A stretch of 64,000 nt of DNA from an uncultured Phycisphaerales bacterium (GCA_965371965.1 CBDVAM010000002.1:1617-65616); one strand, 5' to 3'; shown: positions 5,047-42,556, numbered from the stretch's first letter. The notes: generated by a model from the sequence alone, not told the origin. Made by a program: numbers and translations.

Positions 5047-5141
5047 AAGTCGCGTCACAGGGTGCGCCGGCGTCGCTCGCTGTCACGCAGCGCCGGGTGT
5101 CAAGTGACGATCGCCCCTGGCTTGCACTGGCCATGGCGATT

Positions 5142-5155
5142 GGCCAATAGTGTGG
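5142..5155. promoter_or_regulatory. candidate enhancer/UAS motif GGCCAATAGTGTGG (copy 1)
   Basis: About 100 bp upstream of the sigma54 element at 5032-5046. Near-identical motifs occur at 8830-8841 and, inverted, at 11530-11542. Overlaps the palindrome TTGGCCAA. Confidence 0.35.
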
Positions 5156-5239
5156 AAGCAAAGAGAAGACCGGAGCCCCATGGGCACCCGGCCTCCGGGT
5201 TTGAGTTTGCGCTGTCCGTTGCGACGGATCTACAACAAC

Positions 5240-6641: not shown

Positions 6642-8774
6642 TTAGCAGCCGGCCGCGAAGAGATCGAGATACGCAAAGAAATCGTCGGCATCGATGTCGC
6701 CATCGCCATCGATGTCGGCGGCGGAGTCGCCAGCGGCGAAGAGATCAAGGTAGGCGAAGAAGTCTTCTGCGTCGGCGTCGCCATCGCCATCAAGGTCGGC
6801 CGCACAACCGATGCTCGGCATCAGGACCGTTGCCACGCCCTCGCTGATCTGGCTGAGCCAGAGACGGCCGTTCGCGTCGAACTCGACGTCGCCGAGCTGA
6901 TGGTGGGTCATGGGCGAGTCCTGCCTCGTGAAGATCGTCCACGACTCGTGGTCGTTGATGTCTCCGGAGACAAAGCAGAGCCCGTGGGGGAAGGGGGCCT
7001 GGTTCTCGAAGGTGTGCGCGCTGAGGGCCATGAGTCCGTCATCACGGAAGTCGATGCCGCTGATCGAGATGCCGGGCAGTGGCGAGTTGGTTGTGTCGTA
7101 GAGGGTGAACTGCTTGCCGTCGAATCGGACGAGGCCGTCCACCATGCCGAGCCAGAGGGTGTCGTCGGGACCGATCTTCATCGATCTGATGCCTCCGCGT
7201 TCGAAGATGATATTGAACTCAGTGGCGTCCCAGTCAGTCCAGGTTGTGCCATCGAATCGATGGAAGCTCAGTCGCGATGCGACCCACATGTTTCCTTGGC
7301 TATCAGACTCGATGCCGATGACGATCCCATGGGGAGGCAGGTCGCCAAGCGAGTGGTGCTCCCAGTCATTGCCGGCTTGGCCCCAGAGGCCGCTGTAGTC
7401 TCCGCCGATCCACATGCGCCCGTTGGGATCCTCGCCGATGGCCTGGAAGATCTCGACTCCCAGGCTGCTGTTGCGCCAGTCCCAGATCTGGAAGTCGTTG
7501 CCATCCCATGCGCCGACGCCGTTGGAGCCCATCCAGGGGATCCCATCGCTATCCTCAAAGATGCCGTGTGCCTGCTCGGCGAGGAAGGGCCAAGGATTCT
7601 GTTGCCCGTTGTGCATCCCCCAGTTTTGCCAGCTCTGGTGATCAAACCTGCTCATGCCGGCCTCGCCGGTGGCAACCCACATGTTGCCGGTGGGGCCGCT
7701 ATAGAAGTTGTCGATGAAATAGTCCGGGATGCCGGTGTTATATGAGTTGAATGCCTCGAGCCAGGCGCCGGAGGCGTTGAGATGGCGCGAGGCACCCGGG
7801 GTCGTGACCCAGATGTCGCCGTTGTCGGCGAAGGCGAGCGAGGTGATCCGGATGCCCTGATTGGTGAACTCTTGCCAGGTGCTCCCTCCGTCACGCGAGC
7901 GAGCCACCTGGCCGAACCAGTTGGCAAGATAGACCGCGCCGTCGGGCCCGACCTCAACGGCGGTCGTGGTCGTATTCGCGAGCCCGGTGACGTCGCCGAA
8001 ATAGGCCTCATACTGCCCTGTCGAGCGATCGAAACGGTAAAACCCGTTGCCGCCGCCAACGTCTGCTCTCATCCATATGTCGCCATTGTGATCTTCGTGG
8101 AGGTCGGTAAATCGCGATGGGCCGTCGTGGAAGATCCAGTCGGTGCCGTCAAACTCCGCCAAGCCGGCGAGCACCTTATTGCCGACGAAGACGTGCCCGT
8201 CGCCGGCAACGACGATTGAACTGAGCGCGTCCCAGATCTCGTCCCAGGGCATTTCAATACCCGTCTCGTACTTGGTCCAGTTCACACCGTCGAACTCGAA
8301 GATCGCGTGATTGGTCCGCTGTACGCCGGTGTTGTTGATCCAGACGTGCCCGTCGGCGTCCAGGTCGATGTCCTTGATCCTGTTGTGGCGCAGCGGCGAG
8401 TTGCTCGTGTTGTACACCGTCCACTTGTCGCCATCCTTGTGGACCAGTCCGCCCTCGGTTGCGATCCAGATCGAGCCGTCTTGTGCGAACTCGATGTCGT
8501 CTATGAACTCGCTGGGAATCGGCGTCTCCCAGTTGGCCCATGTTTCCCACGTTTGTGTGGTGAAGTCATAGATCCCGAGGCCGCCTTCGCGCCAGAAGGG
8601 CCAGCGTGCCGCAACCCAGAGGCGCCCATCTGGCCCGAAGGTGTTGAAGCGAGCTTCCTCGCCGGGTACGCCGGTGTTGCTGGGCTTGAGGATCTTCCAG
8701 TCCTGGGCCATCGCTCCGCAGGCCAGCGCCCCAAGGGACGCCGCTACCAATGTCATACTCCACTTCCGTTTCAT
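6642..8774 (-). CDS. secreted two-component-regulator-propeller (Reg_prop-like) repeat protein with Gly-Cys double-dockerin module (member C)
   Basis: ATG at 8774. Signal peptide MKRKWSMTLVAASLGALACGAMAQ. Repeats of type DGxxWIATxxGLxxxDGxxWTxY typical of Reg_prop propellers. C-terminus GCAADLDGDGDADAEDFFAYLDLFAAGDSAADIDGDGDIDADDFFAYLDLFAAGC*. Confidence 0.85.
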   Translation of the reverse strand: MKRKWSMTLVAASLGALACGAMAQDWKILKPSNTGVPGEEARFNTFGPDGRLWVAARWPFWREGGLGIYDFTTQTWETWANWETPIPSEFIDDIEFAQDGSIWIATEGGLVHKDGDKWTVYNTSNSPLRHNRIKDIDLDADGHVWINNTGVQRTNHAIFEFDGVNWTKYETGIEMPWDEIWDALSSIVVAGDGHVFVGNKVLAGLAEFDGTDWIFHDGPSRFTDLHEDHNGDIWMRADVGGGNGFYRFDRSTGQYEAYFGDVTGLANTTTTAVEVGPDGAVYLANWFGQVARSRDGGSTWQEFTNQGIRITSLAFADNGDIWVTTPGASRHLNASGAWLEAFNSYNTGIPDYFIDNFYSGPTGNMWVATGEAGMSRFDHQSWQNWGMHNGQQNPWPFLAEQAHGIFEDSDGIPWMGSNGVGAWDGNDFQIWDWRNSSLGVEIFQAIGEDPNGRMWIGGDYSGLWGQAGNDWEHHSLGDLPPHGIVIGIESDSQGNMWVASRLSFHRFDGTTWTDWDATEFNIIFERGGIRSMKIGPDDTLWLGMVDGLVRFDGKQFTLYDTTNSPLPGISISGIDFRDDGLMALSAHTFENQAPFPHGLCFVSGDINDHESWTIFTRQDSPMTHHQLGDVEFDANGRLWLSQISEGVATVLMPSIGCAADLDGDGDADAEDFFAYLDLFAAGDSAADIDGDGDIDADDFFAYLDLFAAGC

Positions 8775-11357: not shown

Positions 11358-11418
11358 TTCCGGTCTCCATGTCGCTTGAGGACGACGGCTCGCCGAAACC
11401 TCCGACGCTTAGTCATGT

Positions 11419-11433
11419 GCAATGCGTGTGCCA
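11419..11433 (-). promoter_or_regulatory. sigma54 (RpoN) -24/-12 promoter, perfect core TGGCAC-N5-TTGC
   Basis: The minus strand reads TTTGGCACACGCATTGCA (reverse complement of 11418-11435). It is intergenic, upstream of the mini-ORF and of members D-C-B. Confidence 0.7.
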
Positions 11434-11529
11434 AACGCTCGCACATGGTCATTCCGCGATGATCCGGCCCCAAGCGGTGGTGTTCGTCTGCGAGATTCGG
11501 CCGTCTTGTTCAACCCGCGACGGGCAGCG

Positions 11530-11542
11530 CACAATATTGGCC
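11530..11542. promoter_or_regulatory. candidate enhancer/UAS motif (copy 3, inverted): CACAATATTGGCC = reverse complement GGCCAATATTGTG
   Basis: About 100 bp upstream of the sigma54 element at 11419-11433, the same spacing as copy 1 relative to 5032-5046. Contains the palindrome CAATATTG. Confidence 0.35.
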
Positions 11543-13189: not shown

Positions 13190-14670
13190 GACGTTCTCTC
13201 CGCGATCTCTCGAACCTTGTCCTCGAGCCCGTACCGCTCGATGCGATACCGGAAGCTGCTCCGCTGCATGCCGATGAGCTTGGAGGCCTTGGAGACGTTG
13301 CCGCGGGTGTGCTCGAGCGCCTGGAGCATGAGGGCCTGCTCGACCTGGTCCACCTTGTGCATGCCTCGCTCGAAGTCGAATCTCGGCGTGCCGCCGATGG
13401 GCGTCGCCTTGCCGTTGCTGTGCTCTATGCCCGCCCGCGGATGGGCGATCCCGATATCCGCGGCCTCGACCATCTTGGTCTCGCTCAGCATCGCGGCCCG
13501 CTGGATCGCGTTGGCCAGCTCTCTGACGTTGCCCGCCCAGCGGTGCGAGAGGATCGCCGACTCGCACGCCGGCGACAAATCCAGTCCATCGCGCCCGTAG
13601 CGAGCGCCCATGTCTTCCAGGAGTTCGCGTGCAATCAGCAAGGCATCCTGCTCCCGCTCGCGTAAGGGCGGGATCTCGATCGGGAATGCTGCGAGGCGGA
13701 AGAACAGGTCTCGCCGAAACTTGCCGTCCTCGGCGAGCGACTCAAGCTCCTGGTTTGACGCTGCGATGACCCGCGCCCGCACCTTGCGCTCGCGCGATCC
13801 GCCGACGCGCCGGAACGTGCCCTGCTCGACAACGACGAGCAGCTTGGCCTGGAGCTCCAGCGGCATCTCGCTGATCTCGTCAAGAAAGATTGTGCCGCCA
13901 TCGGCCATCTCGAACAGCCCGGTGCGCGAGGTCCGTGCGTCGGTGAAGGCGCCCTTCTCGTGCCCGAACAGCTCGCCCTCGACGAGGCTTGCCGGCAGCG
14001 CCGAGCAGTTGACGTGGACGAACGGCGGCTCGTCCTTGGTCGATGATGGCTGGCGTTCGACCGCCATGTCGTGGATGTATCGAGCGAGCACACCCTTGCC
14101 AACGCCGGTCTCGCCGAGCAGCAGGATTGTGGGCAGGGCCCCGCCGGGATCGGCGCCCAAGGGCATCTGCGCGAGGCGTGCGGACAGATCGAGGCACTTG
14201 AGCCAGGCCGCGCTCTGTCCCAGGACCTTCCGCCCCTGCTCGCGCGTCCGTTCCAGACGCTCGTACAGCTCGACCTTCTGGCTCAGTCGGCGATGCTCCA
14301 GCCACCTGGGAAGCTGGATCAGCAGCTCCTCGATGACGATGGGCTTCTGGAGATAGTCGTTGGCCCCATCGCGCATCGCCTCGACGGCGTGCTCGACGCT
14401 GCCGTAGGCCGTCATCACGATGATGACCCCGTCGAAGCCGTCGGCACGCAGCTCGCGCACGAACTCCAGCCCGTCTTCTTCGCCCAGATGTACGTCGGTG
14501 AGAACGAGGTCCAGGCTCTCCCGTTGCGACACGCCCCGCGCCGATCCGATCGACTCGCCCTCAAACACCTCGTGCCCGGCCTTTGTCAGCGATCGAGAAA
14601 CAGAGAATCTCAGGTTCTCTTCGTCCTCAATAATGAGAATCCTGGCCACCGTCTGCTCCTGACTGGCCAT
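13186..14670 (-). CDS. sigma54-dependent response regulator (NtrC family: REC + AAA+ EBP + Fis-type HTH)
   Basis: REC domain ([11 protein letters not shown]...DLVLTDVHL). Walker [18 protein letters not shown]-loop variant [28 protein letters not shown]-terminal [29 protein letters not shown]. Start taken at ATG 14670, overlapping the HK gene end by 44 nt; the start is uncertain. Confidence 0.9.
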
Positions 14671-16219
14671 TATTGGCCAGGCTTCCTGTCTGCACCTGAT
14701 CGGGCAAGACCAGGGAGAACCTCGCTCCCGTGCCATGAGCCTCGCCCGAACCACCGTCACTGGACGTACCGAGGCTCTCGACCTCGATTCGCCCGCCGTG
14801 TCCTCTCACCGCATGGAGTGCAGATGCAAGTCCGATGCCAGTCCCCTGCTTCTTCGTCGTGAACGACGGACGGAAGAGGTTCGGGAGCACTTCGTCGGAT
14901 ATTCCCGCCCCCTCGTCGGTTATCGACACTGTCCATGAGCCATCGGTCGCTGATGGGGCTATACGGACAACTCCGCCCTTTGGGGTGGCCTCGATGGCAT
15001 TGGCCAAAATAGCCGCCAAGGCGTGCCCCATGTGGTCCGGGTCGAACACGCGGGTGCTCATGGCCCGCGCGCCGCCAAGATCGCACTCGATCGCCACCCC
15101 CCTTGAGGCCGCCATCGGCTCGTGGGCCTGGATCACGCCCCGAAGCCACGATTCCACAGACACCTCACGACAATCCAAGTCGGCGGGGGAGGTCGCCCGC
15201 AGCAGGCGGTTGAGCCACTCCTCGAATCGGTCCACCGCATCGATGATCCGACGCTGGCTGTCCTTGAGATCCTGGTCCTCGACCTCCTGATGGGTCATCT
15301 CGGCGAGCCCGCGAATACCTGAAAGGGGATTGCGGATGTTGTGGACCAGGCGGCGCATCATCTGCCCGACGGCGACGAGGCGCTCTCGCTCGATGCGCTC
15401 TTCCTGGCTCCGCTCGACCAGCCCGGCCATCAGATTCACCTCGCGAGCCAGGGTCGAGAGCTCGTCCTTGCCCCGCGGATGCAGGCGATAGGAGAACTCG
15501 CCGGCACCGATGCGTTCGGCGGCGACGCGGAGCTCCTCGATCGGTCTCACGACCCAGCGACCGACCAGCGAGAGGCTGAGCAGCCCGACCAGCCCGGCGA
15601 GCACCGCGACCAGACCCAGCACCGCGATGAGGCGTACGCGGAGCTGGGACTCGAACGCCTCGGCAAAATTGGTGTCTTCGAGGACGCGCCCCTCGATCTT
15701 CTCGATCAACTCGTGGATCTCAAAGAGCGCAAGCCCGGCTCGGCGGCGAGCGACATCATCCTGGGACTCTCCCCATTTCATGGCGTCGGTGTGGGTATCC
15801 TCGATTCGCCTTCGCAGGTTCCGCTGACGCAGGATCACCGACTCGCCCTCTCTTGCACGAATGCGCCAGCGCTCTGCATGCTGGAGAACATCCAGTTGGG
15901 ACTTCATCTGGTTGGTGCGTGCACCAAACGCGTCGGCATCGAACTCCGGTGGCTCGCCAGAACGCTCGCCCCGCACGCCATGCCCCTCGGATTCTGGAGC
16001 TGTGTCGCCCCAGCTTGGCTCTCCGAGCAGCATCGTCGCCTGTGCCTCGGCACCGCGCTTTATTGTTCGCAGTGACGTCAGCACGCTCGCCATGTTCTGG
16101 GCGGGACGCGAGACCTCTCGTTCAATGATCGCGAACGACGACCACGCCGAGGCGAGGCTGACAAGCACCGCGAGGCCGAACATTGCGAGGAGGATCACGA
16201 ATCGCCGACGGATGGTCAT
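14627..16219 (-). CDS. sensor histidine kinase (2 TM, ~170-aa periplasmic region, HAMP, HisKA, HATPase)
   Basis: TM1 FVILLAMFGLAVLVSLASAW, TM2 LIAVLGLVAVLAGLVGLLSLSLVG, then a HAMP domain. H-box VHNIRNPLSGIRGLAEM. G-boxes DEGAGI / GTGIGL. Confidence 0.9.
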   Translation of the reverse strand: MTIRRRFVILLAMFGLAVLVSLASAWSSFAIIEREVSRPAQNMASVLTSLRTIKRGAEAQATMLLGEPSWGDTAPESEGHGVRGERSGEPPEFDADAFGARTNQMKSQLDVLQHAERWRIRAREGESVILRQRNLRRRIEDTHTDAMKWGESQDDVARRRAGLALFEIHELIEKIEGRVLEDTNFAEAFESQLRVRLIAVLGLVAVLAGLVGLLSLSLVGRWVVRPIEELRVAAERIGAGEFSYRLHPRGKDELSTLAREVNLMAGLVERSQEERIERERLVAVGQMMRRLVHNIRNPLSGIRGLAEMTHQEVEDQDLKDSQRRIIDAVDRFEEWLNRLLRATSPADLDCREVSVESWLRGVIQAHEPMAASRGVAIECDLGGARAMSTRVFDPDHMGHALAAILANAIEATPKGGVVRIAPSATDGSWTVSITDEGAGISDEVLPNLFRPSFTTKKQGTGIGLASALHAVRGHGGRIEVESLGTSSDGGSGEAHGTGARFSLVLPDQVQTGSLANNGQSGADGGQDSHY

Positions 16220-37848: not shown

Positions 37849-38277
37849 ATGGCAACATTTCTCTTCAAGACAGAGCCGGGCGATTACTCCTGGGACGACC
37901 TCGTGCGCGACAAACGCACCGAATGGGACGGAATCACCAACCCCGCGGCGCTGAAGCACCTGCGGGCGGCGCGCAAGGGCGATGAGGCGTTCATCTATCA
38001 CACCGGCGATGAGCGACGCATCGTGGGCCTGGCGAGCATCGTCAAGGGCCCCTACCCAGACCCCGCACGCCCGGAGAACACCAAGGCCGGGGACACCAAG
38101 TTTCCGCTCGTGGATATAAAGGCGTTGCGGGCGGTGCAGACGCCGGTGACGTTGGGCGAGATCAAGGCTGATGCGCGGTTCGAGGGGTTTGTGTTGTTGC
38201 GGGAGTCGAGGCTGAGTGTGGTGCCGGTGCCTGCGGAGATGGATAAGGCGATACGGAAGATGGCGGGGCTTTCCTAA
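37849..38277 (+). CDS. EVE (PUA-like, DUF55) domain protein
   Basis: MATFLFKTEPGDYSWDDL...WDGITNPAALKHLRAARKGDEAFIYHTG...IVGLASIVK is a typical EVE domain. Confidence 0.85.
   Translation: MATFLFKTEPGDYSWDDLVRDKRTEWDGITNPAALKHLRAARKGDEAFIYHTGDERRIVGLASIVKGPYPDPARPENTKAGDTKFPLVDIKALRAVQTPVTLGEIKADARFEGFVLLRESRLSVVPVPAEMDKAIRKMAGLS
38081..38277 (+). repeat. direct repeat, left copy (3' ~200 bp of the EVE gene)
   Basis: Roughly 90% identical by eye to 42585..42784, e.g. GACACCAAGTTTCCGCT.GTGGATAT.AAGGCGTTGCGGGC.GTGCAGACGCCGGTGACG. Confidence 0.85.
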
Positions 38278-38297
38278 GCTGGCCCGCACGGCAGGGG

Positions 38298-38326
38298 TTG
38301 CACCCAGTCGGCAAAGTGTGTATATT
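38298..38326 (+). promoter_or_regulatory. sigma70-like promoter TTGCAC-N17-TATATT
   Basis: -35 TTGCAC (38298-38303) and -10 TATATT (38321-38326) with a 17-nt spacer. About 35 nt upstream of the SD/ATG at 38348/38361. Confidence 0.5.
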
Positions 38327-38399
38327 CGGACTTGGCCACAACGGCCAAAGGAGATCTCCGATGGAACGGATTGAACGATTGAACGATGGAGCAGTTCGA

Positions 38400-38415
38400 G
38401 GGGGGGGGGGGGGGG
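38400..38415 (+). repeat. G16 homopolymer inside the 5' end of a coding region
   Basis: 16 consecutive G counted (38400-38415). Lies between the SD-preceded ATG 38361 and the long ORF beginning at 38432. Confidence 0.9.
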
Positions 38416-38431
38416 TAAAACCCTGGTTCTC

Positions 38432-39742
38432 GTGAGCCTTGCCCTGCTGACGGCGACGCTTGCCACAGGCGCGGCGAGCGCGCAGGAAATCGTCCCAACC
38501 TTCCAAGATCCTGTGGTCTTTGACACGGGTAGCTACCCCTACGGGCTGGCGGCGGCGGACCTGATCGGCGACGACGGGCTGCCGGAGATCGTGGTCGCAA
38601 ACGGCGCTTACAACGCGTTCGATTGTATCGAAGACGGGACGACCGGCACGATCTCGGTCTTTCGCAACACCGGAAACTGGGATCCCGGCCCCGGTGCCGG
38701 ACTCGTGCTCGAACAAACGATCGACATCTGCGACGACTGTGTGCCGGCGGAGATCGTCGTCGCCGACATCGACATGATGGATGGACCCGATCTGGTCATC
38801 AGCGCCGCGGGCGTGAACGACCCGGGCATTTATGTCTGCTACAACGATGGCACGGGGAACTTCGCTCGGATCGAGTACTTCGAGACGCCGCTGCCCGTGC
38901 GCGGGCTTGTCGCTCGCGACGTTGATAACGACGGCTGGATCGATGTCGCAGCGGGCGTCGACTACTGCGACCGGGTTCTCGACACCGACAAGGTGTACTT
39001 CCTGTTCAACGATGCCACCGGCTCCGGCTTATTCGAGCCTGAGATTCTCGAGGTGGACCTCGGCACGGATGAGCGCCTGCCGGGGTGCGACATCGTGGCG
39101 GCGGACTTCTTCCGGCTCGCGCTGGGCCCGCCGATCGTAGACGTCGTCAGCGCCAACATGTGGGACGACTCGTTCACAGAGATCCGCAATCTCGGTAATC
39201 GCCAGTTGAATCCGCACACGACCGAGAGCGGCGGCTGTGGAGACGTGAGTTGGGAGTTCGAGACGATCACTGCAGGGCGGTTCGACAGCAACTCCTTCGA
39301 CGATTTCGCCGTCACCGAGTTTAGGGCCGACTTCGTGGACATCTTCCTCGGCAACGGGGCGGGCGGCTACACGTCCTACTGCGACAACCCCGACCTGCGG
39401 ATGGCGACAGGCGGGACCTTCTGCTGGGGCGTGGAAAACGGACACCTCAACGGACCGGCGAACAAGACCGACCTCGCCGCGGCGCTCGTTCTCAGCAACC
39501 AGGTCTCGGTCATGCTGGGCAGGGGCGACGGCACGTTTCAGACGTTCGAGGACGACGACAGCCAACTGGTGAGCGTCGAGCCCCCGGGCGGCCCTCTCTT
39601 TGAAGCCGATGGCACCATCATGGTCATCGTGGCAGACATGGACCAGGACGGCTTCGGCGACATCGTGACGACCAATCACTTCTCCGACAACATCAGTGTC
39701 CTGATCAACGAGCTCAAGATCGTGCCGGGCCAGGGATCCTGA
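38432..39742 (+). CDS. secreted FG-GAP/VCBS-type propeller protein (no dockerin module); 5' end apparently frameshifted at the G16 tract
   Basis: FG-GAP-like blades (AAADLIGDDGLPEIVVANG, VVADIDMMDGPDLVISAAG, VARDVDNDGWIDVAAG, IVADMDQDGFGDIVTTN). The ORF as sequenced opens at a GTG with no SD. ATG 38361 has a perfect AAGGAG 7 nt upstream but is in another frame (see findings). Confidence 0.75.
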   Translation: MSLALLTATLATGAASAQEIVPTFQDPVVFDTGSYPYGLAAADLIGDDGLPEIVVANGAYNAFDCIEDGTTGTISVFRNTGNWDPGPGAGLVLEQTIDICDDCVPAEIVVADIDMMDGPDLVISAAGVNDPGIYVCYNDGTGNFARIEYFETPLPVRGLVARDVDNDGWIDVAAGVDYCDRVLDTDKVYFLFNDATGSGLFEPEILEVDLGTDERLPGCDIVAADFFRLALGPPIVDVVSANMWDDSFTEIRNLGNRQLNPHTTESGGCGDVSWEFETITAGRFDSNSFDDFAVTEFRADFVDIFLGNGAGGYTSYCDNPDLRMATGGTFCWGVENGHLNGPANKTDLAAALVLSNQVSVMLGRGDGTFQTFEDDDSQLVSVEPPGGPLFEADGTIMVIVADMDQDGFGDIVTTNHFSDNISVLINELKIVPGQGS

Positions 39743-39759
39743 CCGATGGGAGTGCAGCG

Positions 39760-41034
39760 ATGATCCGGCGATGCGGAAACAGATGCAGGGGCACGCTGCG
39801 CATCAGGTTGCTTGTGCTGGCGGTGGGCGTTCTCGCGATCGCGGGATCGCCCGCCCCGGCGCAGGACGATGAGCCCCACTTCATCAGGCTCGGGCATTTC
39901 CCCGACGGGCTCTCTGCCAGTGGCGCGAACGATATCTCGCCGGAGGGCTCGGTCGTCGTCGGCTCCGCCCCGCATGCCGGCTTTGGCGACTTCGAGGCCT
40001 TCCGGTGGACCGAGCAAACGGGATTGGTCGGCCTGGGCAGGCTGGTTGCATGGGGCATCTCAAAGGCGCGGGCGACATCGTCGGACGGCGAGGTCGTCGT
40101 CGGGTGGTCGCACTCCGCGCAGGGTCCCGAGGCATTCCGCTGGACCGAGCAGACGGGCATGGTCGGGCTCGGGGACCTGCCCGGCGGGAAGTTCAACTCC
40201 ATGGCGTTCGGCGTCTCGTGGGACGGACGGGTCATCGTCGGGCACGGACGTTCGCCAGACCTCGAGGCCTACAGGTGGACGCCCGAGGAAGGCATGGTTG
40301 GACTTGGGGACCTGCCCGGCGGGAGCGTTTGGAGCGCGGCGATCGCCGTTTCTGCCGACGGCTCGGTCATCGCCGGGCACAGCAGTTCCGCCAACGGCCG
40401 CGAAGCGTTCCGCTGGACGCCCGAGGAAGGCATGGTTGCCCTGGACCAATCCGATGACTGGTCAAGTACGGCCGTATACGGCATTTCAGCGGATGGTCGA
40501 ACCGTGGTCGGGTTTGGGTTTTTTCGCGGCGAACGTTCAGAGGCGTTCCGCTGGACGCGGGCAACGGGCTTTGAGGGGCTCGGCGACCTGCCCGGCGGGC
40601 GGTTCCAGAGCACCGCAAGGGCCACCAACGCCAACGGCTCGATCGTCGTCGGCGAGAGCATCACCGAGACCGGCAACCAGCCGTTCATTTGGACCAAACG
40701 CCACGGCCTGCGCAACCTACGCGACCTGATCGTCGACGGACTCGGTCTGGATGTCGAAGACATGGAACTCAAGTACGCCAGCGCCGTCTCCGCCGACGGG
40801 CGATGGATCACCGGCGGCGCCTGGACCGACGACGGCTCGGAGGGATGGGTGGTGTATCTGGGCCCGGGCTGCCCCGCCGACTTCGACGGAGACGCCGACA
40901 CCGACGCGGAGGACTTCTTCCTCTACCTCGATCTCTTCGCCGCGGGCGACATGCGCGCCGACATCGACGACGACGGCGACATCGACCAGGACGACTTCTT
41001 CGGGTACCTGGATCTGTTCAGCGCGGGCTGTTAG
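39760..41034 (+). CDS. secreted HAF-family extracellular repeat protein with Gly-Cys double-dockerin module (member F)
   Basis: Six to seven ~45-aa repeats (EAFRWTxxxGMVGLGDLPGGxxxSxAxxVSADGSVIxG), matching the HAF repeat pattern as I recall it. C-terminus GCPADFDGDADTDAEDFFLYLDLFAAGDMRADIDDDGDIDQDDFFGYLDLFSAGC*. Confidence 0.8.
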   Translation: MIRRCGNRCRGTLRIRLLVLAVGVLAIAGSPAPAQDDEPHFIRLGHFPDGLSASGANDISPEGSVVVGSAPHAGFGDFEAFRWTEQTGLVGLGRLVAWGISKARATSSDGEVVVGWSHSAQGPEAFRWTEQTGMVGLGDLPGGKFNSMAFGVSWDGRVIVGHGRSPDLEAYRWTPEEGMVGLGDLPGGSVWSAAIAVSADGSVIAGHSSSANGREAFRWTPEEGMVALDQSDDWSSTAVYGISADGRTVVGFGFFRGERSEAFRWTRATGFEGLGDLPGGRFQSTARATNANGSIVVGESITETGNQPFIWTKRHGLRNLRDLIVDGLGLDVEDMELKYASAVSADGRWITGGAWTDDGSEGWVVYLGPGCPADFDGDADTDAEDFFLYLDLFAAGDMRADIDDDGDIDQDDFFGYLDLFSAGC

Positions 41035-41083
41035 CGAAGCGGTGGGCGGGCGGAGACGGCCCTGACCAAAAGGAGGCGGCGAC

Positions 41084-42556
41084 ATGTTTCAGCGTGGAAG
41101 CCAGCGAAGAACGAGGCGAAGAATCTCGCGGAGCGGGATCGGAGCGCCGTGCATGGGTCCGACGCGGAGCATCTGCGTGTCCGTTGCGGTGGCCGCCCTC
41201 GTGGCGGCGGGCGCGCAGGCACAGCAGCTCGCAAAGTTCACACCGGAGGACGGCGTGAGATGGGGAGACTTTGGCAGCAGCGTCTCGATCAGCGGGTTCA
41301 CGGTGGTCGTTGGGTCTCGGAACGGGCGTGCAGCGGGGCTTGCCAGCGGTTTCGCGTCCGTGTACCGAGCATTGGGCGGAGACTGGCGGCAGATCGCCCT
41401 GATCACCGCTGACGACGCCGCACGCGGCGATGAGTTCGGCTTCAGCGTCTCGATCAGCGGGGACACCATGATCGCCGGGTCGATTCATGACAACGAGCAA
41501 GGAGACGGGAACCGCCACACAGGCCGTGGAGCGGCGTACATCTTCCGCGAGATCGATGGGCTGTGGCGGCAGGTCGCCAAGCTCAGCGCCGATGACGGCG
41601 AGGCCCGCGACAGTTTCGGCACCAGCGTCTCGATCAGTGGTGATACGGCCGTCGTTGGAGCCCCTTTCGACAGCGATGCGGGCAGGTTGAGCGGCTCAGC
41701 GTACGTCTTTCGGGAGGAGGATGGGCTGTGGCGGCAGGTCGCCAAACTCACCGCCGACGACGCCGAGGCCGGCGATTGGTTCGGTACCAGCGTCTCGATC
41801 AGCGGGGACACGGTGGTCGTCGGGGCTCACAGAGACAACGGCGCGGGCGGGAACAGCGGCTCGGCGTATGTCTTCCGCGAGGTAGATGGACTGTGGGGGC
41901 AGATCGCCAAACTCACCGCCGACGACGCCGAGGCATCGGACCATTTCGGCATCAGCGTCTCGATCGGCGGTGATACGGCGGTGGTCGGGATTCGCAGAGA
42001 TCAGCAGGGGGATCCCGACAGCGGATCGGCGTATGTCTTCCGCGAGGTTGACGGGGTGTGGCGACAAATCGACCAGCTTCGGCCCGACGATGGGATGCCT
42101 CACGACCACTTTGGCACCAGCGTGTCGATCGATAGAAACGCCATTGTCGTCGGTGCCTCGGGAAGCGATGGCGCGGGCCTGAACAGCGGCTCGGCGTATT
42201 TGTTCCGCGAGTTCGATGGCGTGTGGGAGCAGGTTGAGAGAGTCTTCCCGCAGGACGGCCAGTCCTCCGATTTGTTCGGCGAGAGTATCGCGATCAGCGG
42301 TGATGTGGCTGCGATCGGAGCTAGTGGTGACGACGATGAGGGTCCGCTCACGGGTTCGGCATACGTCTTCTGGGTCGGGTCGAGCTGCCCGGCCGATTTG
42401 GATGGAGACGCCGACGCCGATGCCGACGACTTTTTCGCCTACCTCGACGCCTTCGTCGCCGGCAACCTCGACGTCTGCGACATCGACAATGACGGCGACT
42501 GCGACGCCGAGGACTTCTTGGGCTTTCTGAACCTGTTTGCTTCGGGGTGTCCGTGA
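41084..42556 (+). CDS. secreted FG-GAP repeat protein (8 blades) with Gly-Cys-Pro double-dockerin module (member G)
   Basis: AAAGGAGG lies 7 nt upstream of the ATG at 41084. Repeats DxFGxSVSISGDTxVVGA...GSAYVFRExDGxWxQ. C-terminus SCPADLDGDADADADDFFAYLDAFVAGNLDVCDIDNDGDCDAEDFLGFLNLFASGCP*. Confidence 0.85.
   Translation: MFQRGSQRRTRRRISRSGIGAPCMGPTRSICVSVAVAALVAAGAQAQQLAKFTPEDGVRWGDFGSSVSISGFTVVVGSRNGRAAGLASGFASVYRALGGDWRQIALITADDAARGDEFGFSVSISGDTMIAGSIHDNEQGDGNRHTGRGAAYIFREIDGLWRQVAKLSADDGEARDSFGTSVSISGDTAVVGAPFDSDAGRLSGSAYVFREEDGLWRQVAKLTADDAEAGDWFGTSVSISGDTVVVGAHRDNGAGGNSGSAYVFREVDGLWGQIAKLTADDAEASDHFGISVSIGGDTAVVGIRRDQQGDPDSGSAYVFREVDGVWRQIDQLRPDDGMPHDHFGTSVSIDRNAIVVGASGSDGAGLNSGSAYLFREFDGVWEQVERVFPQDGQSSDLFGESIAISGDVAAIGASGDDDEGPLTGSAYVFWVGSSCPADLDGDADADADDFFAYLDAFVAGNLDVCDIDNDGDCDAEDFLGFLNLFASGCP

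Follow-up and report, generated by a model that had tools for sequence, protein, structure and literature searches.

A predicted sigma-54 promoter with a candidate activator-binding site upstream of GC-type dockerin genes in an uncultured Phycisphaerales bacterium

We analysed a stretch of 64,000 nucleotides from an uncultured Phycisphaerales bacterium (GCA_965371965.1 CBDVAM010000002.1:1617-65616; hereafter, the window), in which a first-pass annotation had flagged positions 11418-11542 as a sigma-54 promoter with an upstream activator motif. The element lies in front of a small open reading frame (mini-ORF) and three genes (D, C, and B) whose products end in a GC-type dockerin. We judge it very likely that the flagged element is a genuine sigma-54 promoter (P1) with an activator-binding site. 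The window contains three -24/-12 elements (P1, P2, and P3) and TGGCCA hexamers and dyads whose placement is not random; these features are conserved in related genomes, and a complete kinase and sigma-54 activator pair is encoded next to them (Table 1). The whole model, in which P1 is a genuine sigma-54 promoter and the neighbouring regulator acts on it through TGGCCA sites, has in our estimate a probability of roughly 0.75, judged from sequence comparisons.

P1, P2, and their upstream motif

The minus strand reads TTTGGCACACGCATTGCA at 11435-11418 and carries an exact TGGCAC-N5-TTGC at 11433-11419, which confirms the full sigma-54 core claimed for this position. The search for this pattern (TGGCACNNNNNTTGC) revealed two exact matches in the window, P1 and P2 (5046-5032), both on the minus strand. 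As the first-pass annotation had stated, both are intergenic and correctly oriented upstream of dockerin genes; these genes are of the GC type. Dinucleotide-preserving shuffles gave a mean of 0.06 matches, and none of 100 shuffles gave two. That the matches resemble the sigma-54 consensus by chance, as can happen in GC-rich DNA, and have no function is very unlikely. Such genomes do yield many GG-N10-GC pairs, and the weaker matches of a matrix scan fall in coding regions; however, two exact 10-base matches, intergenic and correctly oriented, were found where 0.06 are expected, and their position is strongly conserved across genomes with otherwise unalignable spacers.

Transcription starts were predicted by counting from the -12 GC; the distance to the next ATG is 50 nt at P1 and 56 nt at P2, where the ATG is that of gene A. 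The P1 and P2 regions have no mutual similarity outside the motifs, and therefore the shared motifs do not come from a recent duplication. P1 was the highest-scoring site of the window in a rough scan with a sigma-54 weight matrix, the check suggested by the earlier annotation. The exact-pattern results outweigh the matrix scores because the matrix is only approximate. The RNA structure in the P1 leader was not significant (z = -1.57), no Rfam family was found in the window, and no IHF-like sites were found between the upstream site and the promoter. An apparent promoter near 38270-38305, before another FG-GAP gene, was rejected owing to its wrong -24/-12 spacing.

Upstream of P1, the minus strand at 11542-11530 carries the 13-mer GGCCAATATTGTG. 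A second copy with one mismatch, GGCCAATAGTGTG, occupies 5142-5154 on the plus strand and is thus inverted relative to P2. The gap between the motif and TGGCAC is 96 bp at P1 and 95 bp at P2, and the centre of the CAAT|ATTG core lies 128.5 bp from the predicted start at both promoters. The earlier claim of the same motif at the same distance from P2 therefore stands for the distance, but the P2 copy is inverted and differs at one base. An equal distance in opposite orientation is as expected for a protein-binding site with two-fold symmetry.

Orthologs of the neighbouring regulator (53-80% identity) and their flanks were taken from 18 other genomes or contigs. The full 13-mer is kept only in the two closest loci, with three mismatches at -108 in L001 and two at -99 in L161. 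As a conserved unit it was weak outside these two relatives (combined p = 0.04, six independent regions), and the hexamer or dyad described here fits better. An unbiased k-mer count identified TGGCCA as the most enriched hexamer between -170 and -40 of eight promoters, with nine occurrences in six regions against 0.42 expected (p = 4e-7; about 1e-3 after correction for approximately 2,000 hexamers). All the other top k-mers overlap it (e.g., GGCCAAT and CTGGCCA). TGGCCA is approximately 2.6 times commoner in the intergenic than in the coding DNA of the window, and the promoter excess remains.

The dyad GGCCA-N4-TGGCC was defined from the junction of the kinase and regulator genes (see below) and then tested on the promoters. 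With up to two mismatches it was present at -180 to -40 in eight of 10 promoters (null 0.11, p = 8e-7), and with up to one mismatch in four of 10 (null 0.018, p = 2e-5). A control sigma-54 promoter before a DnaK-like gene in L161 had no dyad. The site upstream of P1, GGCCAATATTGTGC, shares 11 of its 14 bases with the junction dyad and has counterparts in L001 (GGCCACAACTGTGC) and L161 (GGCCAATATTTTC) that agree with it in position and orientation. On these counts, what is conserved of the upstream motif is not the whole 13-mer but TGGCCA, for which the dyad GGCCA-N4-TGGCC is the best description. The proposal of an enhancer-type site about 100 bp upstream is thus supported by the enrichment of the hexamer and dyad, with a conserved unit other than the one first proposed.

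Table 1. Promoter elements, candidate regulator sites, and genes of the window
Feature	Position	Strand	Description
P1 sigma-54 promoter, TGGCACACGCATTGCA	11433-11418	minus	GG at -25/-24, GC at -13/-12; predicted start ~11407
P1 upstream site, GGCCAATATTGTGC	11529-11542	minus	dyad GGCCA-N4-TGGCC with 2 mismatches; centre ~-128.5; includes the 13-mer
P2 sigma-54 promoter, TGGCACGCGAGTTGCC	5046-5031	minus	predicted start ~5020
P2 upstream region	5119-5154		TGGCCA twice (5128-5133, 5141-5146) and the 13-mer copy (5142-5154, plus)
P2 dyad copy, GGCCAGTGCAAGCC	5132-5119	minus	2 mismatches
P3 sigma-54 site, TGGCATCGGACTTGCA	14840-14825	minus	in kinase G2-box codons T-G-I-G-L-A; ~145 nt upstream of the activator ATG
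Perfect dyad, GGCCAATAATGGCC	14678-14665		over the activator start codon (ATG)
Sigma-70-like match, TGGCCA-17-GATAAT	17133-17105	minus	upstream of the module; the -35-like hexamer is TGGCCA
Pseudopilin-like gene	17002-16247	minus	N-terminal methylation motif; first gene of the conserved module
Sensor histidine kinase	16219-14627	minus	HAMP, HisKA, HATPase_c; 44-nt overlap with the activator gene
NtrC-family response regulator (sigma-54 activator)	14670-13186	minus	Response_reg, Sigma54_activat, AAA_lid_14, HTH_8
Gene E	13189-11630	minus	exported, fold without assignment; GC-type dockerin end (NF041540, 73.5 bits)
Mini-ORF, 42 aa	11357-11229	minus	signal-peptide-like N-terminus and one dockerin repeat, without terminal Gly-Cys
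Gene D	10994-8904	minus	Ycf48/BNR-type propeller; C-terminal GC-type dockerin, 55.9 bits
Gene C	8774-6642	minus	Reg_prop-repeat propeller; C-terminal GC-type dockerin, 53.9 bits
Gene B	6592-5240	minus	beta-propeller-like; C-terminal GC-type dockerin, 50.9 bits
Gene A	4964-3708	minus	FG-GAP repeats; GC-type dockerin, 45.6 bits

The adjacent regulatory module and its conservation

The candidate activator is encoded 1.7 kb upstream of P1. Its matches to PF00158 (Sigma54_activat, E = 4e-57), PF25601, PF02954, and PF00072 make up the full domain set of a sigma-54 activator, which lends computational support to the suggestion of the first-pass annotation that this neighbouring response regulator is the activator. 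The loop that reads GAFTGA in the canonical form is GAFTDA here, one substitution away; its G, A, F, D, and A were invariant in eight of eight aligned orthologs (L005 has N in place of T), and the DNA-binding helix region is near-invariant among orthologs. The protein scored below the NCBIfam equivalog cut-offs for AtoC (339.5 vs. 714 bits), NtrC (327 vs. 558.6), and ZraR (237 vs. 760). By these scores, it belongs to an unnamed subfamily and is not an equivalog of any of the three. Its closest relatives are from uncultured Phycisphaerales, and more than 120 database clusters had 51-80% identity to it; with one exception, those with a named source were from Phycisphaerales or Phycisphaeraceae. 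The search also returned hundreds of sigma-54 activator paralogs across bacteria. In the same module, the ATG of gene E overlaps the activator stop codon (ATGA), and no relatives of protein E were found in the PDB by sequence.

The four-gene module (pseudopilin-like gene, kinase, regulator, and E) was present wherever the contig was long enough, and E was found in every orthologous module whose contig runs past the activator gene. A strong sigma-54 site follows the E ortholog directly in five other Phycisphaerales genomes (L001, L005/L006, L008, L161/L162, and L167), four of them with TGGCAC-N5-TTGC and one with TGGCAC-N5-CTGC. This positional conservation further supports P1 as a sigma-54 promoter. 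A second sigma-54 site at the P2 position was found in L001. A promoter-anchored comparison was used because the intergenic DNA around these promoters could not be aligned informatively with MAFFT (saturated); amid these unalignable flanks, the promoter is conspicuous as an island of conservation.

The gene behind the promoter in L005, L008, and L167 was identified by tblastn as an ortholog of gene A, which points to an ancestral layout of module, sigma-54 promoter, and A. In the window and in L001, extra dockerin genes are inserted, together with a second promoter; the P1-equivalent promoter of L001 directly precedes three dockerin genes. Three more loci were fetched as an out-of-sample check. 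In one of them, L173, where the A ortholog is found on the upstream side of the module, a sigma-54 site (TGGCACCCACGTTGCA) nevertheless accompanies it, and two one-mismatch dyads are located 65-75 bp upstream of this site. The A orthologs of L005, L008, L167, and L173 are thus each preceded by a strong sigma-54 site, and on this comparison P2 before gene A is the evolutionarily conserved target. The arrangement of P1, the mini-ORF, and D, C, and B was seen, by the same comparison, only in the window and, without the mini-ORF, in its closest relative.

A total of 382 kb of orthologous loci gave 28 matrix scores of at least 15.5. P3 or intergenic sites beside the module accounted for 26 of them, and the other two were a DnaK-type promoter and a coding coincidence. 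The former, a perfect sigma-54 site (TGGCACGGCCTTTGCA) at L161 16743-16758 before the HSP70/DnaK-like gene, has no GGCCA in the 200 bp upstream; it presumably uses a different activator and served as the negative control mentioned above. Two further observations were made in these loci. The whole module is tandemly duplicated in one Phycisphaeraceae genome (L171 7479-18581), and both copies carry the embedded sigma-54 site. On the minus strand of L172, a strong sigma-54 site at 7384-7399 (TGGCACGAGTCTTGCA) is directed at the end of an mfd-like gene, away from the module, with no obvious ORF behind it and one GGCCA approximately 125 bp upstream.

The dyad is best preserved within the module itself. 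The 44-nt overlap between the kinase and regulator genes reads TGGCCAATAATGGCCAG-N15-TGGCCA (14679-14643) and contains three TGGCCA hexamers, the third at 14643-14648; the first two form a perfect 14-bp palindrome, GGCCA-N4-TGGCC, over the regulator ATG. In the first 16 loci (323 kb), 12 of the 13 perfect dyads were in the module: eight at this junction and four upstream of the pseudopilin-like gene or, in the truncated contig L004, in its 5' end. The remaining one lies elsewhere. The junction dyad was perfect in 10 of 20 modules, including two of the four newly fetched, and had one mismatch in a further module. The junction hexamer is kept where the start codon differs (CTG or TTG in L008, L164, and L167), which argues for a constraint at the DNA level. 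Upstream of the module, TGGCCA occurs 120-250 bp before the pseudopilin-like gene in most orthologous loci, and the copy that forms the -35-like hexamer in the window is a possible autoregulation site.

P1 and P2 could be real sigma-54 promoters that are activated by another enhancer-binding protein encoded elsewhere, with TGGCCA bound by some other factor or serving the neighbouring regulator for autoregulation only. Sigma-54 activators form a large family of which such a genome may hold several, the sites at P1 and P2 are degenerate while the perfect dyads are in the module, and several orthologous modules have no adjacent sigma-54 promoter. Against this, the promoter stays beside the module in six genomes and tracks gene A when A moves, and the motif class found at the regulator gene is significantly over-represented before these promoters and lacking at the control sigma-54 site. 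We consider activation by another protein quite unlikely, and prefer the neighbouring regulator as the activator of P1 and P2.

The third element, P3, lies inside the kinase gene and was kept in all 20 orthologous modules examined by means of rare codons. Its Leu codon was CTT in 20 of 20 modules, its Ala codon GCA in 17 of 20, and its Thr codon ACT in 10 of 11 (first 16 loci), whereas in these kinase and regulator genes CTT makes up approximately 10% of Leu codons, GCA approximately 10% of Ala codons, and ACT approximately 6% of Thr codons. The wobble bases of the spacer vary freely (ATC/ATA/ATT; GGA/GGG/GGT/GGC). As a control set, we used 140 paralogous activator loci from a metagenome scan with the ortholog alignment as query (paralogs of at most 41% identity, no orthologous loci). 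A G2 box was encoded within 400 nt upstream of the activator gene in 84 of the 140; a strong sigma-54 score occurred in that stretch in only three of the 140, and a G2 box was present there in none of these three. Our first reading of P3, as a by-product of G2-box coding, was overturned by the codon usage and by the paralog control. The simplest reading is that P3 is probably an internal sigma-54 promoter for the regulator gene and E, under selection at the DNA level. We had also considered TGGCCAAT, in the kinase N-box codons (window position 15001) approximately 160 bp upstream of P3, as an upstream site for this promoter; it was dropped because the orthologs do not conserve it.

The predicted circuit and related systems

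In the circuit that we propose, the kinase would respond to some signal by phosphorylating the response regulator, while sigma-54 RNA polymerase would sit at the -24/-12 element of P1 as a closed complex. The phosphorylated regulator would oligomerise on TGGCCA-type sites (GGCCA-N4-TGGCC), represented at P1 by the degenerate GGCCAATATTGTGC near -128, loop to the sigma-54 polymerase, and open P1 and P2 using ATP. The P1 transcript, from about 11407, would include the mini-ORF (42 codons) and probably extend into the genes for the exported proteins D, C, and B; P2 would place gene A under the same control. The same regulator probably also controls itself, through P3 and the site at its own start codon. 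Through P3, the regulator and E would be subject to positive feedback. Negative feedback could come from two other sites, the one at the regulator start codon and the one at the -35-like hexamer before the module, as at the operon of NtrC; alternatively, the junction site may be a downstream enhancer for P3. We infer the binding of the regulator to TGGCCA sites, the transcription starts, the extent of the operons, and the sign of autoregulation from these arrangements.

Several observations weigh against this model. The dyad copies at P1 and P2 are degenerate, with two to three mismatches in 10 arm positions, located in one arm. The number and spacing of TGGCCA elements vary between loci, and the dyad is a poor fit at two promoters (L001_P2 and L161_P1), which do have TGGCCA hexamers. 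The junction stretch codes in two frames, so that a constraint at the protein level is possible. Eight orthologous modules keep P3 without a perfect or one-mismatch junction dyad, and P3 may therefore use other sites or another activator; moreover, the junction dyad is downstream of P3, at about +143, an unusual position for an enhancer. The sigma-54 weight matrix is an approximation based on the published consensus, the 64-kb window encodes no RpoN-box peptide (rpoN is absent from it), and a 234-nt gap without a recognisable signal separates the mini-ORF from gene D.

The closest parallel is PrsK/PrsR, in which PrsR is an NtrC-type regulator and sigma-54 motifs precede proteins with the PEP-CTERM sorting signal (Haft et al., 2006; PMC1569441). 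Both systems encode a kinase together with an NtrC-type sigma-54 activator, and in both an exported family with a common C-terminal tag is preceded by a -24/-12 motif and, farther upstream, by another conserved motif. They differ in that the window regulator reaches 291.3 of the 502.6 bits required by TIGR02915 and the kinase 76 of the 300 bits required by TIGR02916; that the targets carry the GC-type dockerin (NF041540) and not PEP-CTERM; that the companions are the pseudopilin-like gene and protein E, whereas PrsK/PrsR has the TPR protein PrsT; and that the organisms are Phycisphaerales here and Proteobacteria there. Given the scores below the cut-offs and the other target tag, the circuit would work like PrsK/PrsR without being a member of that family.

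NtrB/NtrC of enteric bacteria, which acts at glnAp2, recognises the dyad TGCACC-N5-GGTGCA, controls nitrogen assimilation, and has NtrC sites at the promoter of its own operon. The window resembles it in having a candidate site of imperfect dyad symmetry approximately 100-140 bp from a TGGCAC-N5-TTGC promoter, a regulator with receiver, AAA+, and Fis-type HTH domains, and extra sites at the regulator's own operon that would serve autoregulation. Its site is, however, GGCCA-N4-TGGCC, its regulator scores 327 against 559 bits, its targets are surface proteins, and no IHF-like site was found. In the flagellar genes of Caulobacter, the ftr enhancers of FlbD can lie downstream of the sigma-54 promoter; a downstream geometry of this kind is what we propose for P3 and the start-codon dyad, with a regulator that differs from FlbD (268 bits against a cut-off of 750).

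With respect to the targets, the 'Planctosome' is a cohesin-dockerin hypothesis for the surface assembly of dockerin-bearing exported proteins in freshwater Phycisphaerae (Andrei et al., 2019; PMC6461901). Exported dockerin-bearing proteins in Phycisphaerae are common to that hypothesis and to the window; the Planctosome work deals with peptidases that bear canonical cohesin and dockerin modules and is silent on regulation. It has been proposed that sigma-54 mainly governs the cell exterior (PMC3162934), which fits a circuit predicted to control exported surface proteins. The literature that we searched makes no mention of the GC-type dockerin or its regulation.

The kind of regulation is standard; the proposed regulon and the candidate operator, which would be order-wide, are undescribed. 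A broader reading is tentative, and we hold it with more doubt than belief: an order-wide Phycisphaerales sigma-54 circuit for a GC-type dockerin regulon, with P3 in the ATP-lid codons and the activator's operator at its start codon, which together would couple positive to negative feedback, and with short ORFs behind P1 (in the window and L161) that could encode regulated free-dockerin peptides and not debris. If true, it would be the functional counterpart of PrsK/PrsR for GC-type dockerin proteins, with two unusual design features, the promoter in the kinase G2-box codons and the operator over the start codon of the activator itself.

The model would give a first regulatory handle on the GC-type dockerin family. 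It specifies which sensor kinase and which activator would act, proposes GGCCA-N4-TGGCC as the DNA site, and singles out the FG-GAP protein A as the conserved core target. These predictions are open to in vitro tests that need no cultured host, and they allow the regulon to be predicted genome-wide across many Phycisphaerales genomes. P3 would also be a clean case of dual constraint, in which a transcription signal restricts synonymous codons inside a conserved catalytic motif.

The dockerin genes and the mini-ORF

The products of A, B, C, D, and E pass the NF041540 cut-off for the GC-type dockerin (29 bits) and, judged by eye, have signal-peptide-like starts. Gene C has an ortholog in L001 that is 74% identical. 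A hairpin followed by a T-run (3722-3704), which resembles a terminator, follows gene A. Another GC-rich hairpin, ACCCGGCCTCCGGGT, is located at 5186-5200, 40 nt past the gene B stop. Its T-run is found only on the plus strand, and the hairpin may keep the transcript of B apart from the P2 region.

The mini-ORF scored 22.9 bits, under the same cut-off, and at the DNA level its similarity to other dockerin repeats is limited to approximately 50 nt. It appears to be either a remnant or a small regulated peptide. A parallel occurs at L161 13236-13355 (also L162 7086-7205), where a 39-aa ORF that ends in ...DSNDFFAYLDAFVVGC (Gly-Cys) and consists of a single GC-type dockerin repeat follows the promoter; the next gene is convergent.

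Given the gap that lies between the mini-ORF and D, the co-transcription of these three genes from P1 is a prediction only; the three are D, C, and B. No terminator-like site, significant RNA structure, or sigma-54- or sigma-70-type match was found in this gap, and gene D has its own strong ribosome-binding site. P1 might thus be a leftover that drives only a decayed fragment, the mini-ORF, with D, C, and B transcribed from another, unrecognised promoter. This fits the single dockerin repeat of the mini-ORF, its missing terminal Gly-Cys and low score, the 234 nt and the ribosome-binding site before D, and the equivalent promoter of L161, which is followed solely by the 39-aa ORF before the convergent gene. 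A perfect consensus with a retained upstream motif would, however, be unexpected in a decaying element; the equivalent promoter of L001 stands immediately before three dockerin genes, and the gap offers no match for a replacement promoter. We regard a leftover P1 as unlikely, and transcription from P1 through the mini-ORF and probably into D, C, and B as the better reading.

Elsewhere in the window, an FG-GAP gene (38375-39739, plus strand) lies upstream of two more GC-type dockerin genes (39604-41034 and 41066-42556). Just inside its 5' end, at 38400-38415, are 16 consecutive G, which may serve slipped-strand phase variation or may be an artefact of the assembly.

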